Source: Deltaproteobacteria bacterium
Lineage (GTDB): Bacteria; Desulfobacterota; Binatia; Binatales; Binataceae
Length of the DNA: 64,000 bases
Reading direction: 5' to 3'
NCBI GenBank assembly: GCA_021799495.1
Contig: JAJZAI010000002.1
Coordinates: forward strand, 84,968 to 148,967
The notes under the pieces are model-generated. The model did not search any database. It was not told the DNA's origin and was given only the letters and a program-made list of their open reading frames with translations. Of the stretch, positions 26,967 through 52,458 are shown in pieces. Position 1 is the stretch's first letter; every line of letters begins with the position of its first letter. A program made the translations under genes and the position numbers.

Positions 26967-28007
26967 ATGTTGGATTTTGGCTTGCTGTTCGCCTTCCGCC
27001 GTCCGGATTTCGGGCGCGATTCGTTCGTCGAGCTCTATCGCAAGCATCTCGACCTTTGCGTCGCCGCCGAGGAGTTGGGGTACGACACGGTATGGCTGAC
27101 GGAGCATCATTTTGTTCCCGACGGCTACTCGCCGTCGCTGCTGCCGATCGCGGGCGCGATTGCGGCGCGCACCAGGCGCATCCGTATAGGAACCTTCGTG
27201 CTATTGCTGCCGCTGCACGATCCCTTGCGCGTGGCCGAAGACGCCGCGACCGTCGATATCATCTCGAACGGCCGGCTCGATCTCGGCCTTGGCCAGGGCT
27301 ATCGCGTGCCCGAGTTCACCGGCTTCGGCGTGCCGCGCAAGGAGCGTGGCGCGCGCCTCGAAGAAGGAACGGAAATCATCCGCCGGGCATGGACCGAAGA
27401 CGGATTTTCGTTCGACGGCCGGTTCAACCGCTTGAGCAATATCACGCTCGTGCCCAAACCCGTCCAGCAGCCGCATCCGCCGCTCTGGCTCGCGGGCCGC
27501 GGACCGAAATCGATCGCGCGCCTGGCGCGCCACGGCTACAACCTCTGCGGCACCGGCGGACCGGATCAGCAGCAAATGTACGACGCGGCGTTGCGGGAGC
27601 ACGGCAAAAATCCGGCGGATTTCAAAATCGCGCAGTTGCGCAACGCCTTCGTCGCGCGCAATCCCGGAGAGGCGTGGGATCATTCCGAGCGCGGCCTGCA
27701 TTACATGCTCTCGTGCTACGGCGAATGGTTCCGCGAGGCGAGCGATCTTCCCGGCGACGAGCTGTACGGCCAGAACATCCCGCCGGTCGGTGAGTTGCGC
27801 CACAGCGACACGGCGCGATTTTTCGGCGAGCCGCCGATCGTCGGCACGCCGGCGGCCGCGATCGAGCTGATCGAGGATTACTTGCGCCGCACCCGCGTGA
27901 CCCATCTGGTGCTCTACATGGCCGTTCCCGGCGCCGACGCGGCGGCGGTGCATGAGAGCATGAAACTGTTCGCGGCGGAGGTGATGCCGCATTTCCGCCA
28001 GCGCTGA
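26967..28007 (+). CDS. LLM-class flavin-dependent oxidoreductase (luciferase-like monooxygenase)
   Basis: WLTEHHF, TIM-barrel LLM signatures; TTG 26955 also possible. Confidence 0.88.
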   Translation: MLDFGLLFAFRRPDFGRDSFVELYRKHLDLCVAAEELGYDTVWLTEHHFVPDGYSPSLLPIAGAIAARTRRIRIGTFVLLLPLHDPLRVAEDAATVDIISNGRLDLGLGQGYRVPEFTGFGVPRKERGARLEEGTEIIRRAWTEDGFSFDGRFNRLSNITLVPKPVQQPHPPLWLAGRGPKSIARLARHGYNLCGTGGPDQQQMYDAALREHGKNPADFKIAQLRNAFVARNPGEAWDHSERGLHYMLSCYGEWFREASDLPGDELYGQNIPPVGELRHSDTARFFGEPPIVGTPAAAIELIEDYLRRTRVTHLVLYMAVPGADAAAVHESMKLFAAEVMPHFRQR

Positions 28008-33142: not shown

Positions 33143-33739
33143 ATGCCCGCGAGTTCTTCGCAAGTGACGCTGCGCGCGCCGCGGCAGGATAATCGCCGCG
33201 CCCAACTGCTCGACGCGGCGGCGCAACTATTCAGCGAGCGCGGCTTTCACGCCACGTCGATGCGGGATATCGCAAAGACGGTCGGGATGCTTTCGGGTTC
33301 GATTTATTATCACTTCGAATCCAAGGAAGAGATGCTTCTGGCCGTTTATGAAGAAGGTAAACGGCGGATCGCCGACGAGGTTGACGCGGCGGTGGCGAAC
33401 ACGACCGAGCCATGGATGCGGCTCGAAGCCGCATGCGCGGCGCATCTGCGCGCCTTGTTATCCCATCGCGATTATTCGCAGGCGATGATTCGCGCGCGTC
33501 CGCAAGAGGCCGGCGCTTTCGCGGGGCGGATTCGCGAACTTCGCCAGGATTACGAGATGCGGTTCCGGCGCTTAATCGAGGATTTGCCGCTACCGCCCGA
33601 AATCGATCGTCATTATCTTCGCTTGCTTTTGTTCGGCGCGCTAAACTGGTCGCAGGTCTGGTACCATTCAGGCGGCGATTCGCCGGAAATTGTAGCGCGC
33701 CATTTTGTTAGTATACTTCGCAGACCACTTCAGGCCTGA
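33143..33739 (+). CDS. TetR/AcrR family transcriptional regulator
   Basis: N-terminal HTH LLDAAAQLFSERGFHATSMRDIAKTVGMLSGSIYYHFESKEEML. Confidence 0.9.
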   Translation: MPASSSQVTLRAPRQDNRRAQLLDAAAQLFSERGFHATSMRDIAKTVGMLSGSIYYHFESKEEMLLAVYEEGKRRIADEVDAAVANTTEPWMRLEAACAAHLRALLSHRDYSQAMIRARPQEAGAFAGRIRELRQDYEMRFRRLIEDLPLPPEIDRHYLRLLLFGALNWSQVWYHSGGDSPEIVARHFVSILRRPLQA

Positions 33740-34565
33740 TGCGGCATCGCGGGGCGCCTCGGGGCGCCGATGCGCCGCCGTCGGCCGCGTTCGATTCGCC
33801 CTTCCGGCGCTCGCGATTTATTTGCTGCTGGCGGTCCTGATTGGGCCGCGCGCGGCGAATGCGACCGATTTCTACGAAATTCAGATTTATTCGTTCGATA
33901 CCGTGCCTCAGGACCAACTGATGGCCGAATTGCATCTGAATTACGTCAGCACCGCGGTCGGCATGGCCTCGAAATCGAATCTTCCGCTGTATCAGACTCA
34001 TGCGACCTATGAATTCACCTACGGCCTGCTGCCGTACTTGGAAGTGGGACAATATGTCTGCACGGCGATGTTCGAGCCGGGGCAATGGGAGTACGCGGGT
34101 GCGCGCAGCAAGGTTCATTTCGGCATCCCGCAAACCGCGGATTGGCCGGTTCAATTCGGCGCCAATATCGAGCTTCAGTATATGCGCCGCGCCGCAGTTC
34201 CGGATCCGTTCAATATCGAGTTCATGCCGATTATGGAATCTCATTGGCGGCGTTTCACCGCGATAGCCAATCTTTCCTTCGAAAAACAGTTCAGCGGGCC
34301 GGGAACACAGGCAGGAATCTCATTGGAGCCGATGGGTCAGCTAAGCTATCTGCTGACCAAATGGTTTGAGCCGTCTCTGGAATATTTCGGCGATATAGGG
34401 GCGGTCAAAGAACCGTATATCTGGCCGGAACAGCAACAGTTTATCGTTCCGGCCGTGAATCTCTATTTGATACCGCAACTTGAGTTCAATTTCGGCGTCG
34501 GCTTCGGAATTACGCGAAATCAGCGCGGCACGTTCGAAAAAGGCACGATCGGCTGGCTTTTTTGA
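33705..34565 (+). CDS. outer-membrane beta-barrel protein (MetA-pathway/phenol-degradation-like transport family)
   Basis: Long signal peptide ...ALAIYLLLAVLIGPRAANA, alternating beta-strand pattern, C-terminal aromatic GWLF; TTG start overlaps tetR end, true start uncertain. Confidence 0.6.
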   Translation: MLVYFADHFRPDAASRGASGRRCAAVGRVRFALPALAIYLLLAVLIGPRAANATDFYEIQIYSFDTVPQDQLMAELHLNYVSTAVGMASKSNLPLYQTHATYEFTYGLLPYLEVGQYVCTAMFEPGQWEYAGARSKVHFGIPQTADWPVQFGANIELQYMRRAAVPDPFNIEFMPIMESHWRRFTAIANLSFEKQFSGPGTQAGISLEPMGQLSYLLTKWFEPSLEYFGDIGAVKEPYIWPEQQQFIVPAVNLYLIPQLEFNFGVGFGITRNQRGTFEKGTIGWLF

Positions 34566-36137: not shown

Positions 36138-36281
36138 AGGGATTCTTCGCCTTCGGCTCAGAATGACAAGCGGGGGTTGGCCTTCGGCCGATCGGCGCCT
36201 CCGGTTCGACGATTTCTACGCCGACCTTCGCGGTCGTTCAAGGCTTTTATTCTGTCATTCTGAGCGCAGCGAAGAATCCCT
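36138..36281. repeat. MITE-like element with 29-bp terminal inverted repeats (agggattcttcgc...gctcagaatgaca / tgtcattctgagcgcagcgaagaatccct)
   Basis: Arms at 36138-36168 and 36253-36281 are near-perfect reverse complements; same 27-mer recurs at 52365; intergenic; encodes the VILSAAKNP-type pseudo-peptide seen in many metagenome annotations. Confidence 0.7.
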
Positions 36282-36337
36282 ATTTGTTTAAGCCCGCTTG
36301 TCGAGTTTATTCGATCGTCGCACAATTTCGCATGAGG

Positions 36338-37234
36338 CTAACCAGCTTTCGCGCTGTTTTTGTCGAAAACGGATTTCGCTTCGAAATGCCGGGATATTCG
36401 GTCGAGCTGCTCTTCGAATAACGGCGGATCTTCGGCCGCGCGATGAATTGCGTCGCTGAGCGTGCCATAAATTTCAGCGAATGAAGGAAACCTGCGCTTG
36501 AAATCTTCTGGCAGCGTTTCATTGTATTTTTTGCAGAGCTCATCGCCGCGGATGGCGTCGTCGTTTATCACCGACCTCATGAATTGTTCGATTAATGTTC
36601 TGAGCATGAACAACGCGGGCAAGATTTGTCCGGAGTTAAAAGCTATCCGCGCTTGTGAGTAGTATTTTCGTTGAGCCTTTGGAATATATTCGGGCGCTTT
36701 TACCTCCTCGAATTCGCTTCTTCCGGTAAGAGTCAATTTCAATCCTTTGCGGGTCACCATGAAAAGTATCGGATCGCTCTTACAGCCCTGGCATTGGAGC
36801 GGAAGGCAAAGAACCTGAAATGTCGCCTTTCTCGGCGGCGCGCTAAACTGGGTTGTAAATGGACGTTCTTGATCTAAATTGAGGTTAAACGGAGTTCTAG
36901 CGTCGCATTGAGAACAAAAGTTCCATACATTCGGAAATCTAAAAGTAAACCCATTAACAGGCTCCGAATTTTGCGCCTTTTGCAATGGTAGCCAAGGTTG
37001 TTTCTCGAACTTCTGCGTAAGAAATTGATCGAGAATTCTTCCAATTCGTCCGCCATTATGCTCCTTGTACAATCGGTTGCGATCTATATTGAGAGATTGA
37101 TAGAGGTGCCTTTCGTTAAGAAGCTTTTCAAAGGCTTCATTTACGAGCTCCCCGGCAATTTTGAGCAATTTAGCGGCTGCGGCCCTTTGGTCAGTTGACA
37201 GGATGCTCCTCAATTCGGGGAATTCGATCGCCAT
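36338..37234 (-). CDS. hypothetical protein with central Cys-rich zinc-ribbon-like motif, third gene of the higBA-like locus (possible DUF4145-like C-terminus)
   Basis: 298 aa; CSQC...CLPLQCQGC cysteine cluster; C-terminal YSQARIAFNSGQILPALFMLRTLIEQFMRSV helix pair; lies in the low-GC island; 58 nt after the antitoxin gene. Confidence 0.6.
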   Translation of the reverse strand: MAIEFPELRSILSTDQRAAAAKLLKIAGELVNEAFEKLLNERHLYQSLNIDRNRLYKEHNGGRIGRILDQFLTQKFEKQPWLPLQKAQNSEPVNGFTFRFPNVWNFCSQCDARTPFNLNLDQERPFTTQFSAPPRKATFQVLCLPLQCQGCKSDPILFMVTRKGLKLTLTGRSEFEEVKAPEYIPKAQRKYYSQARIAFNSGQILPALFMLRTLIEQFMRSVINDDAIRGDELCKKYNETLPEDFKRRFPSFAEIYGTLSDAIHRAAEDPPLFEEQLDRISRHFEAKSVFDKNSAKAG

Positions 37235-37292
37235 CTGCGCGCCTTCCGATTTTCCAGTGGTTCGCGGGATTCAACCGACCTTAACCTATCGG

Positions 37293-37598
37293 CTATGCCG
37301 CGCGTAATTTGACGCGGCGGGGGCCGAAGGTCGCGACAATTTCTAACTCGCCGCCCAACGCTGCGACATAGCGTTGTAGAGTGGAGAGACGGTAATCCGA
37401 ACGGCTTTCAAGGCGCGAGATTTCCGATTGCGCTTTCTTAAGCGCTTCCGCCAGCTCTTCCTGCGTTTTGCCGGCCGCCTCGCGCAGCTCCCGCAAGTCC
37501 ATTTCGAGCAGTTCATCCGCAACGGCGCGATCGATTTCCTTTAATTCTTCCGGCGAAAACTTGCGCGCCCGGATTTCACGCCACGGCTTCGTCTTCAT
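37293..37598 (-). CDS. higA: HigA-like antitoxin, XRE-family HTH (addiction module antidote protein)
   Basis: LRELREAAGKTQEELAEALKKAQSEISRLE HTH and C-terminal LSTLQRYVAALGGELEIV typical of antidote family; 4-nt overlap with upstream toxin gene. Confidence 0.8.
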   Translation of the reverse strand: MKTKPWREIRARKFSPEELKEIDRAVADELLEMDLRELREAAGKTQEELAEALKKAQSEISRLESRSDYRLSTLQRYVAALGGELEIVATFGPRRVKLRAA

Positions 37599-37954
37599 TT
37601 CTCACGCTCCCCTTTTTGCAAATAATTCAAATAGTCATTCCAAATCCGCTCGGCGCGCGGAATGAACGTTTCGTAAAACCTGTTGTCGCCCGTCTTATCG
37701 CCGCCGATGAGCAACACCGCCCGCCGAATCGGATCGAATGCGTAAAATACCCGCAACGGACGCCCGGCGGATTGAATCCTGAGCTCGCGCAGCGCCCGCG
37801 ATCCTTTAATTTCGCTGCTATAGGGAAAACCGAGGGCCACGCCCCTTTCCTCAAGCAGGCCGATTACGCGCGAAACCGCATCGGAATCTCTTTTGGCAAG
37901 CTCCAGAAACCAAATTTCAAATTCCTCGGTACCTTCAATCTCAACCATCGCCAC
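37595..37954 (-). CDS. higB: HigB-like toxin of RelE/ParE superfamily (addiction module killer protein type)
   Basis: ALRELRIQSAGRPLRVFYAFDPIRRAVLLIGGDKTGDNRFYETFIPRAERIWNDYL matches the killer-protein family pattern ELRI..G..YRV.Y......ILLL.GGDK; toxin-first order typical of higBA. Confidence 0.78.
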   Translation of the reverse strand: MAMVEIEGTEEFEIWFLELAKRDSDAVSRVIGLLEERGVALGFPYSSEIKGSRALRELRIQSAGRPLRVFYAFDPIRRAVLLIGGDKTGDNRFYETFIPRAERIWNDYLNYLQKGEREK

Positions 37955-37968
37955 CGCCCGCCGGATGA

Positions 37969-37998
37969 ATTATGCGTCCAAACGCATATATTGTCAAG
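37969..37998 (-). promoter_or_regulatory. sigma70-type promoter (TTGACA-N18-CATAAT on minus strand) with operator-like 7-4-7 palindrome
   Basis: Plus-strand tgtcaa 37993-37998 and attatg 37969-37974; palindrome tatgcgt-ccaa-acgcata 37971-37988 overlaps -10/spacer; 15 nt upstream of higB ATG (near-leaderless). Confidence 0.55.
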
Positions 37999-38053
37999 CG
38001 CATATACGAATGCAAGCGATCGTGCGTCTGTTTCCGCGAACTTGTTGATTCTC

Positions 38054-38082
38054 AAAAAAAAGCGGATCGCGCTATAGTCCGC
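38054..38082 (-). terminator. intrinsic-terminator-like hairpin plus U8 on minus strand
   Basis: Minus-strand reading agcgga-ctatagcgcga-tccgct followed by TTTTTTTT (plus-strand A8 at 38054-38061); sits at right edge of the low-GC island. Confidence 0.45.
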
Positions 38083-38128
38083 TCGTGCGCCTGAGCGATG
38101 CGCGCCGGGCAGTCTGTATGGAGCGATT

Positions 38129-52320: not shown

Positions 52321-52364
52321 GGGCGCTAGGGTCATGTCTCACAACTATGAGTAACGACTTAAAC

Positions 52365-52458
52365 GTCATTCTGAGCGCAGCGAAGAATCCCGGCTTCCGC
52401 AAAAAAATCGCACAAAAATCAGGGATTCTTCGCTCCGAGGACTCCGCTCAGAATGACA
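52365..52458. repeat. second copy of MITE-like inverted-repeat element (gtcattctgagcgcagcgaagaatccc ... agggattcttcgc-[12 nt]-gctcagaatgaca)
   Basis: Arm 52365-52391 identical to 36255-36281; partner arm 52421-52458 with 12-nt insertion; 29-nt A-rich spacer; intergenic. Confidence 0.7.

Follow-up and report, generated by a model that had tools for sequence, protein, structure and literature searches.

Organization of the islet

The stretch of DNA considered here (hereafter the window) comprises 64 kb from a Deltaproteobacteria bacterium of the Binataceae (contig JAJZAI010000002.1, positions 84,968 to 148,967 of the forward strand) and holds, between two conserved metabolic genes coding for a nitronate-monooxygenase-like protein (NMO) and an enoyl-CoA hydratase (ECH), a small islet of low guanine-plus-cytosine (GC) content with three genes on the minus strand. 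This low-GC segment is composite and can be taken apart into three pieces, namely a toxin-antitoxin (TA) module, a slot for one gene, filled here by a gene coding for a protein of 298 amino acids (aa), and a repeat resembling a miniature inverted-repeat transposable element (MITE). Comparison with related genomes shows that the slot is exchangeable, and the protein found in it belongs to a large and unnamed family in which a zinc-ribbon-like domain precedes a HEPN-like helical bundle. An earlier note on this DNA had presented the locus as a higB/higA-like pair with an uncharacterised third gene; the positions that it gave for the three open reading frames (ORFs) and for the features flanking them on both sides were all confirmed.

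The compositional contrast with the surroundings is pronounced. Between positions 36290 and 38090 the GC content is 0.508 (50.8%), compared to 0.629±0.025 across all non-overlapping 1.8-kb windows of the same length of DNA (z = -4.85). Locally, it varies between 0.43 and 0.57 from about 36200 to 38100, against 0.62-0.72 in the flanks, the two 1-kb bins of the islet are the lowest among the 64 of the window, and the lowest GC value anywhere in the window is reached at 36251. The same trend is seen at third codon positions, whose GC content is 0.51 in the 298-aa ORF, 0.66 in the antitoxin gene and 0.61 in the toxin gene, as opposed to 0.77-0.86 in the four flanking genes, and in overall gene composition, the TA pair being at 0.53-0.58 and the 298-aa gene at 0.47. 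The sharp GC drop described earlier is thereby confirmed, and the composition signal from which horizontal acquisition had been proposed is real. Scans of the 64-kb window for tRNAs and Rfam families returned no match, so that no tRNA attachment site is present. A second and milder dip (0.51-0.53) is visible at 34100-34550, over the 3'-terminal part of a plus-strand ORF of 286 aa (33705-34565) located just to the left of a rhodanese gene.

The first gene of the islet (37595-37948, minus strand) codes for a toxin of the Gp49/HigB type within the RelE/ParE superfamily. It is 117 aa long when translated from the ATG at 37948, which is the start used in public gene calls, and 119 aa long from an alternative GTG at 37954. 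It matches the Pfam family Gp49 (PF05973) with an E-value of 5.6e-16 and 58.8 bits, well above the cut-off of 23.9, as well as PHROG 3445, labelled 'toxin' (E = 9e-18). At least 1973 relatives are found at E <= 1e-10, PF05973 being present in 120 of the 120 listed, and the closest ones are 72-78% identical, several being named RelE/ParE family toxin from metagenome-assembled genomes (MAGs) of Candidatus Binataceae. The antitoxin gene (37293-37598, minus strand) lies downstream of the toxin gene and overlaps it by the four nucleotides ATGA. Its 101-aa product has an Xre-type helix-turn-helix (HTH) at residues 35-86, recognized by HTH_3 (E = 1.8e-9, 37.9 bits, cut-off 23) and HTH_31 (E = 1.8e-8). 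On the basis of these family matches, the pair is an ordinary Gp49/HigB-type module, and its earlier assignment to the higB/higA type is upheld by the two above-threshold Pfam matches, the PHROG label and the relatives. According to a recent survey (PMC11980606), the Gp49 family counts 22,000 toxins that degrade mRNA in a ribosome-dependent manner and are encoded ahead of their antitoxins. Among the PADLOC models, the toxin is also similar to NsnC over the last 100 residues of the latter (E = 6.9e-11), and the antitoxin to the HTH models HTH_VI and PDC-M64C; Gp49-like domains are thus part of larger candidate defence proteins as well.

Upstream of the toxin gene, a promoter scan detected a sigma-70-like promoter (TTGACA-17 nt-CATAAT, 37969-37997, minus strand) with 11 of 12 consensus matches, which is the best match in the region. 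Its spacer contains a perfect palindrome, TATGCGT-N4-ACGCATA (37971-37988), found only once in the window and probably corresponding to the HigA operator. Since the -35 and -10 hexamers, together with part of the spacer, are conserved in copies of the TA pair at two different chromosomal sites, namely the same site in a sister genome (locus L101) and an unrelated site (locus L104), the promoter can be attributed to the TA module itself, whose outer edge is situated near 38048 (module from about 38048 to 37293). Further out, a terminator-like hairpin (GAGCGGA...TCCGCT) followed by T8 can be read from the sequence at 38054-38084 of the minus strand, where the low-GC segment approximately ends on the right; it lies upstream of the TA promoter and faces the beginning of the NMO gene. 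What had been noted as an A8-plus-hairpin at this edge is indeed present and, on the minus strand, reads as hairpin then T8 (38084-38054). This structure is kept at the same site in L101 and absent from the TA copy of L104, and hence represents local NMO-proximal DNA rather than a part of the TA module. A simple terminator scanner made no call at 38054-38084, the hairpin having been missed because its loop is 11 nt long.

On the other side of the pair, the antitoxin gene is separated from the 298-aa gene by a spacer of 58 nt (37235-37292, minus strand), with which the variable cassette begins. A Shine-Dalgarno-like element, GGAAGG, is located 8 nt before the ATG of the 298-aa gene, and the scan of the spacer revealed neither a promoter-like nor a terminator-like site, its folding (z = 0.37) being no better than that of shuffled sequence. 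Given this spacer devoid of promoter, terminator or unusual structure, the 298-aa gene is probably transcribed together with the TA pair from the HigA-repressed TA promoter.

On the left, the islet is bounded by a 144-bp element (36138-36281) with terminal inverted repeats (AGGGATTCTTCGC...GCTCAGAATGACA / TGTCATTCTGAGC...GCGAAGAATCCCT; inverted repeats I8 and I9). It has two perfect 13-nt arm pairs and a predicted fold of -73.6 kcal/mol (z = -4.96), none of 200 shuffled sequences folding as well. A second and shorter copy with the motif GTCATTCTGAGCGCAGCGAAGAATCCC is found 16 kb away, at 52364-52435 of the window, an identical 28-nt arm occupies the equivalent position, at the end of the slot, in the sister genome (L101 and L102), and a partial copy is present in L028. 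The element is thus short, non-coding, bordered by terminal inverted repeats and present in several copies, which is what characterizes MITE-like sequences, and the inverted repeat that had been reported at this edge is real. The repeat family seems to be dispersed in the lineage, judging from these copies. Neither target-site duplications nor a cognate transposase were identified for it, and the spurious ORFs that run across it read '...HSERSEESL...'.

Site comparison and the one-gene slot

The clearest view of how the islet is assembled comes from a sister genome whose NMO and CoA-transferase are 93% and 90.5% identical to those of the window, with a DNA identity of 84-85%. It carries the TA pair at the same site, the antitoxin being 92% and the toxin 76% identical. 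Homology between the window and L101 runs unbroken from the CoA-transferase gene through the NMO gene and the TA pair down to position 37311, that is, approximately to the stop codon of the antitoxin gene, where it breaks; identity returns, at 100%, over the 28-nt repeat arm at 36253-36280. These two breakpoints delimit a variable cassette slot (36282-37292, minus strand) extending from the antitoxin stop codon to the MITE-like repeat and holding the 298-aa gene in the window.

In the sister genome (L101:2553-3194, and also L102), the slot is occupied by a 213-aa ORF with a GC content of 0.50, which starts 30 nt behind the antitoxin gene and is preceded by a strong Shine-Dalgarno element. The 213-aa protein has no match in Pfam, PHROG or PADLOC, belongs to a cluster of its own with 2 members, gives a single-sequence structure prediction with a mean predicted local distance difference test (pLDDT) of 38.7, too low to be of use, and is unrelated to the 298-aa family according to hhalign (probability 1%). 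The only stretch aligned at that 1% probability contains a Y-x3-S-x3-H pattern (VYEETSGFIH) with the same spacing as Y256-x3-S260-x3-H264 of the 298-aa protein, a resemblance that could be due to chance or could indicate that the 213-aa protein is a second, very divergent HEPN-like effector.

Two further comparisons bear on the history of the site. In a Binataceae MAG, a solitary copy of the TA pair (toxin 72% and antitoxin 87% identical) lies between uvrA and a DUF488 gene, with nothing behind it. In more distant relatives, whose ECH and NMO are respectively 82-83% and 78% identical to those of the window, the DNA can be aligned with the window up to 36006 and again from 38151 onwards, and the interval contains none of the islet genes but a luciferase-like monooxygenase gene with the GC content of the host. 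This gene (PF00296, E = 4.7e-30) is situated between the CoA-transferase/NMO genes and the ECH gene at L017:2489-3850 and L047:931-2157. The islet may have replaced the luciferase-like gene, since all that the window has of this kind is a paralogue with 23% identity (27048-27698). The search for an empty site among the relatives did not yield a truly empty one.

Both these site comparisons and the GC content of the TA pair, which is closer to that of the host than the 0.47 of the 298-aa gene, point to the pair as the older resident. Taken together, the alignments indicate that the segment from 37292 to 36282 is an exchangeable one-gene slot closed by the MITE-like repeat, a conclusion that is much firmer than anything that can be proposed for the biochemistry of its current occupant. 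It may be added that the proteins MBE3602085.1 (ECH) and MBE3602091.1 (NMO) fall in the same clusters, at 90% identity or more, as the products of the genes flanking the islet, and that their accession numbers are six apart; the MAG encoding them may therefore have five genes between ECH and NMO, compared to three here, and represent another variant of the slot.

The 298-residue protein and its family

The gene occupying the slot in the window (36338-37234, minus strand) is intact, and it is found, identical and in an identical arrangement, on 11 contigs from several samples. A single-sequence search with its product retrieved 39 relatives, none of which has a Pfam domain, and a profile search in a database of 1.84 billion cluster representatives retrieved 916 representatives (at 50% identity) with E <= 1e-3, including 597 with E <= 1e-30. 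Among the 150 matches listed, all are between about 190 and 370 aa long, most of them between 270 and 340 aa, and they are mostly matched over nearly the full profile. By these searches, the family is large, coherent and unnamed. That the third protein has no nameable domain had been remarked from the sequence, and this is borne out: the protein has no meaningful match in Pfam, NCBIfam or PADLOC, nor do 32 other family members in Pfam and PADLOC. At the sequence level, the protein is connected to a single named entry, phrog_1305, labelled 'DNA binding protein', which is matched by 28 of these 32 members with a best E-value of 2.1e-7 and, in the window protein, from the first cysteine knuckle into the helical domain. 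When the zinc-ribbon/HEPN part alone was used as the query of a profile search, the result was saturated by the family itself, the 120 hits listed being all devoid of a Pfam domain.

Four regions can be distinguished along the protein: an N-terminal helical part, a variable segment (residues 47-100), a zinc-ribbon-like beta domain with four cysteines (approximately 101-180) and a C-terminal HEPN-like bundle (186-297). Conservation, assessed on 173 diverse family members, is unevenly distributed among them. Invariant or nearly invariant positions comprise HLYQ (43-46) and W81 in the N-terminal part, C107, C110, C148, C151, R162, G171, R172 and E176 in the zinc-ribbon region, and L205, R212, E216, Q217, Y237, Y256, S260, H264 and H283 in the C-terminal domain, the last eight of these being each conserved in at least 98% of the sequences. 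Variability, with many insertions and deletions, is concentrated in residues 47-100 and in the loop that joins the two CxxC knuckles. The window protein retains every family-invariant residue. As for the CxxC...CxxxxCxxC cluster described earlier, the pattern does occur in this protein, but C143 is not conserved, and only the knuckles C107/C110 and C148/C151 are essentially invariant, being kept in at least 172 of the 173 sequences (172 for C110). One relative, P0032 (L097 and L098, 4814-5636), located near a serine recombinase, is only 211 aa long and has a piece of the HLYQ region in another frame about 170 nt upstream; it is probably a frameshifted or truncated copy.

The structure predicted by AlphaFold2 from the alignment of the family is confident (pLDDT 88.3, predicted TM-score 0.73) and consists of a long N-terminal helix, a beta-rich knuckle domain and a C-terminal helical bundle, the knuckles sitting on beta hairpins directly before the helical domain. 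With this model, Foldseek reached a probability of 1.00 only to PDB entry 2q00, the probabilities for Csx1, Csm6 and AbiA being lower. In HEPN domains, the catalytic Rx4-6H motif is found at the end of helix 3, helix 2 carries an acidic residue, often within Ex3[KR], inserts between helices 2 and 3 are frequent, and the superfamily includes DUF4145 (PMC3710099). In the model, H264 is at the end of helix 3 (252-264), E216-x3-R220 is in helix 2 (204-223), and helical inserts (230-248) lie in between; E216 is found in 172 of the 173 sequences and the position of R220 is occupied by R or K in 143. The C-terminus is therefore best described, as far as the model goes, as a HEPN-like bundle with a non-canonical site. 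The resemblance to DUF4145 suggested in the earlier note is accordingly sustained in terms of fold and motif position, but not by any sequence match to the Pfam DUF4145 family.

The genomic neighbourhoods of the family, examined at 11 distinct sites apart from the window's own genome, are mostly of accessory nature. At L107-L111, the member (P0048, 305 aa; L107:2665-4918) lies about 30 nt downstream of genes for a BglII-like endonuclease and an MT-A70 methylase and is the last of an apparent three-gene operon begun by these two, an arrangement seen on 14 contigs. Other members neighbour a Type ISP restriction-modification (R-M) enzyme (L014), an N6/N4 methylase (L099), a SIR2 gene together with an integrase (L008), an integrase (L007), a terminase large subunit (L016) or a serine recombinase (L097 and L098), or lie between two integrases (L015); unannotated small ORFs surround the one at L011, and only metabolic genes are present at L009/L010 and L012/L013. 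That the third gene might serve in defence or abortive infection, or be carried as cargo by a mobile element, had been suggested before and fits with these R-M, SIR2, integrase and prophage neighbourhoods. At none of the 11 sites does a Gp49 or HTH relative of the TA pair adjoin the family member (tblastn, E <= 1), and this pattern of mobile or defence-gene neighbourhoods without the pair rules out an obligate partnership with it. The family is thus routinely found without a TA pair, which had been named beforehand as an observation that would speak against the three genes forming a unit, but a housekeeping annotation, named together with it, is never carried.

Possible explanations and relation to known systems

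RAZR, also designated PD-T7-4, is a ring-activated zinc-finger RNase that mediates single-gene abortive infection and is activated by ring-shaped phage proteins (PMC13017515); PD-T7-4 was discovered by Vassallo et al. 2022 (PMC9519451). It is 219 aa long, its zinc-finger domain is its most variable part, and its R146, eight residues before H154, is essential (PMC13017515). The reading towards which we lean, with modest confidence, is that the 298-aa gene is a RAZR-like single-gene abortive-infection candidate, co-transcribed locally with a resident and non-dedicated TA pair and placed in an exchangeable slot. Here again, the modular and cassette part of the explanation is much firmer than the biochemical one. 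According to this scheme, the resident type II module would have its own strong promoter and palindromic operator, its toxin being, by family, a ribosome-dependent mRNA endonuclease, and the 298-aa protein would act as a stand-alone defence effector. The variable surfaces of the latter (residues 47-100 and the loop between the knuckles) would recognise a trigger derived from the invader, upon which the HEPN-like site, made up of H264, of E216-x3-R220 and R212 in helix 2, and of Y256 and S260, would cleave RNA and stop the growth of the infected cell. The TA pair would set the expression level of the 298-aa gene through the HigA-repressed promoter and, by addiction, would make the islet more stable. 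For the 298-aa protein, RNase activity, the sensing of a trigger and a defence phenotype are what we infer.

Several observations weigh against this reading. The arginine of the Rx4-6H motif is absent, no Arg being found 4-7 residues before the invariant H264; at the spacing of the RAZR arginine, eight residues before H264, the family has the invariant Tyr256, with an invariant Ser at -4. As a consequence of the missing arginine, the site may be non-catalytic or may rely on a different chemistry. Profile searches of PDB sequences with the full-length and C-terminal alignments found nothing relevant, the only PHROG family matched is labelled 'DNA binding protein', a family annotation that is unverified, and no family member was detected in phage and plasmid collections (tblastn) or in a scan of IMG/VR. 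Defence or mobility genes are not obvious at 2 of the 11 other sites (L009/L010 and L012/L013). Moreover, none of the 32 members matches PADLOC PD-T7-4 (E <= 10) or Pfam DUF4145/PF13643 (E <= 1), the helical N-terminal extension of about 100 aa with the invariant HLYQ is lacking in RAZR, and the zinc-ribbon core is highly conserved in the 298-aa family whereas it is hypervariable in RAZR.

In the light of the missing arginine, the 298-aa protein could be a non-catalytic nucleic-acid binder or regulator, for instance a zinc-ribbon binder, a controller or a protein of the restriction-alleviation type, in which the HEPN-like bundle would serve for dimerisation or ligand binding. Non-catalytic, substrate-binding HEPN families do exist (PMC3710099), the label of PHROG 1305 and a weak similarity to the Lar restriction-alleviation protein in BFVD (E = 0.08, probability 0.16) go in the same direction, and one member ends an R-M operon, where controller and accessory proteins also occur. 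Nevertheless, polar residues that stay nearly invariant in 173 diverged sequences are a pattern seen more in active sites than in scaffolds, the catalytic His and the accessory acidic motif have their positional equivalents in H264 and E216-x3-R220, HEPN families that have kept the His and lost the Arg are possibly still active (PMC3710099), and the PHROG label does not come from a verified annotation; this alternative is therefore held to be rather unlikely. A still less probable one, which starts from the same locus but from its regulation, considers the three genes as a true tripartite system, in which HigA or HigBA would control the third gene as a dedicated effector and the slot would accept alternative effectors; phage host shut-off would be sensed through decay of the labile antitoxin, derepression of the TA promoter and a resulting rise of the effector level. 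Consistent with it are the lack of promoter and terminator signals of the third gene itself, 58 nt behind the antitoxin gene, the position of the sister-genome replacement likewise 30 nt behind that gene with its strong Shine-Dalgarno element, the low GC content of both cassette genes (0.47 and 0.50), the precedent of Caulobacter higX, driven by the higBA promoter (PMC13384398), and the activity of toxin-antitoxin-chaperone (TAC) systems against phage (bioRxiv 10.1101/2024.02.24.581848). However, the family occurs without this TA type at 11 of 11 other sites, being found elsewhere behind an R-M pair or alone, a copy of the TA module stands by itself with no gene following it, and co-transcription alone does not show functional dependence.

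The least probable of the alternatives is that the juxtaposition is accidental, a permissive intergenic site, recognizable by its repeat, having received several independent insertions, with the third gene possibly representing decaying cargo. This would account for the different GC contents of the pieces (0.53-0.58 for the TA pair, 0.47 for the third gene), for a slot content that differs between close relatives, for the metabolic gene carried at this position by more distant ones and for the truncated or frameshifted look of a family member elsewhere (211 aa). It is hard to reconcile, though, with a 298-aa gene whose intact sequence does not differ between 11 contigs from several samples, which retains every family-invariant residue and which has a Shine-Dalgarno-like element at the proper distance, and with the fact that the different cassette gene of the sister genome keeps to the same orientation and spacing with respect to the antitoxin gene. 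The sister slot with its unrelated gene, the solitary TA copy, the R-M operon member and the absence of the pair at the 11 other sites led to the rejection, on comparative grounds, of a dedicated three-gene system, and a dedicated arrangement of the kind considered in the earlier note is not supported.

The interest of the locus lies in a large unannotated zinc-ribbon/HEPN-like family with a non-canonical site and in the exchange of cassettes behind a TA pair, the framing as an 'atypical three-gene TA' not being supported. If the 298-aa protein is a defence RNase, its family, which comes mostly from environmental metagenomes and escapes Pfam, NCBIfam and PADLOC, enlarges the zinc-ribbon/HEPN class by a group that is large and of broad phylogenetic range, RAZR being the member of this class for which a described mechanism was found, and the family's lack of the arginine essential in RAZR offers a direct test of how much Rx4-6H is needed. 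The locus is also a clean natural case of cassette exchange, with the same TA pair and site, different downstream genes and nucleotide-sharp breakpoints, and as such bears on the part played by TA modules and small repeats in the assembly of defence islets. A bolder generalization, offered as a tentative possibility only, would be that RAZR-like immune effectors in at least 900 clusters are widespread and unannotated, with a non-canonical HEPN site (Tyr/Ser/His and the helix-2 Arg/Glu) and an extra N-terminal module, and that HigBA serves beside the MITE as a promoter-and-addiction 'dock' for exchanged effector cassettes.

With regard to known TA systems, the pair resembles HigBA-type type II modules in its toxin-first order, its 4-nt overlap, its two above-threshold Pfam matches, its strong promoter overlapped by a palindrome and its thousands of close relatives, the only difference being the gene slot directly downstream. 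The third gene behind such a pair had been called atypical; precedents are nonetheless provided by the TAC systems, in which HigB and HigA are followed by a SecB-like chaperone and which defend against phage (bioRxiv 10.1101/2024.02.24.581848), and by Caulobacter higX, situated 42 bp downstream of higBA and repressed by HigA and LexA (PMC13384398). As in these two cases, the third gene here follows higA at a distance of some tens of nucleotides and probably depends on the higBA promoter for its transcription, but it codes neither for a SecB-like protein nor for a LytTR transcription factor, is exchangeable between close relatives and normally occurs without the TA pair. Assignment to the TAC systems was rejected, the model having no SecB-like fold, the protein no Pfam or NCBIfam match, and the antitoxin no extension: only about 15 residues follow its HTH (35-86 of 101), which leaves, judged on length alone, no room for a chaperone-addiction segment. 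A HEPN-MNT toxin-antitoxin pair was rejected as well, no nucleotidyltransferase gene being present beside the 298-aa gene or among the called genes at the other sites.

RAZR and the 298-aa family have in common a single polypeptide in which a Cys4 zinc-ribbon-type domain is followed by a HEPN-type helical domain, a stand-alone gene encountered in defence or mobile contexts across phyla, and a conserved His presumed to be catalytic, and in both the HEPN similarity is at the same faint level. They differ in the residue found upstream of this His, since the essential R146 (...H154) of RAZR corresponds to an invariant Tyr (Y256...H264) in the 298-aa family. Compared through profiles and the published description of RAZR, the 298-aa family is not demonstrably composed of RAZR members. 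With respect to the site itself, the closest parallels are PaREP1 (PDB 2q00/2jpu) and c2405, HEPN families that keep the His without the Arg and are described as possibly still active (PMC3710099). No sequence relationship with the 298-aa family is detectable, and the make-up of the proteins differs too, PaREP1 being a stand-alone archaeal protein with a length of about 120 aa and c2405 having AbiTii, not a zinc ribbon, as its fusion partner. The likeness resides in the position of the conserved His, which ends helix 3 and is not preceded by an Arg at a distance of 4-6 residues, and in the possibility that other conserved basic residues, here R212 and R220, could substitute for this Arg.

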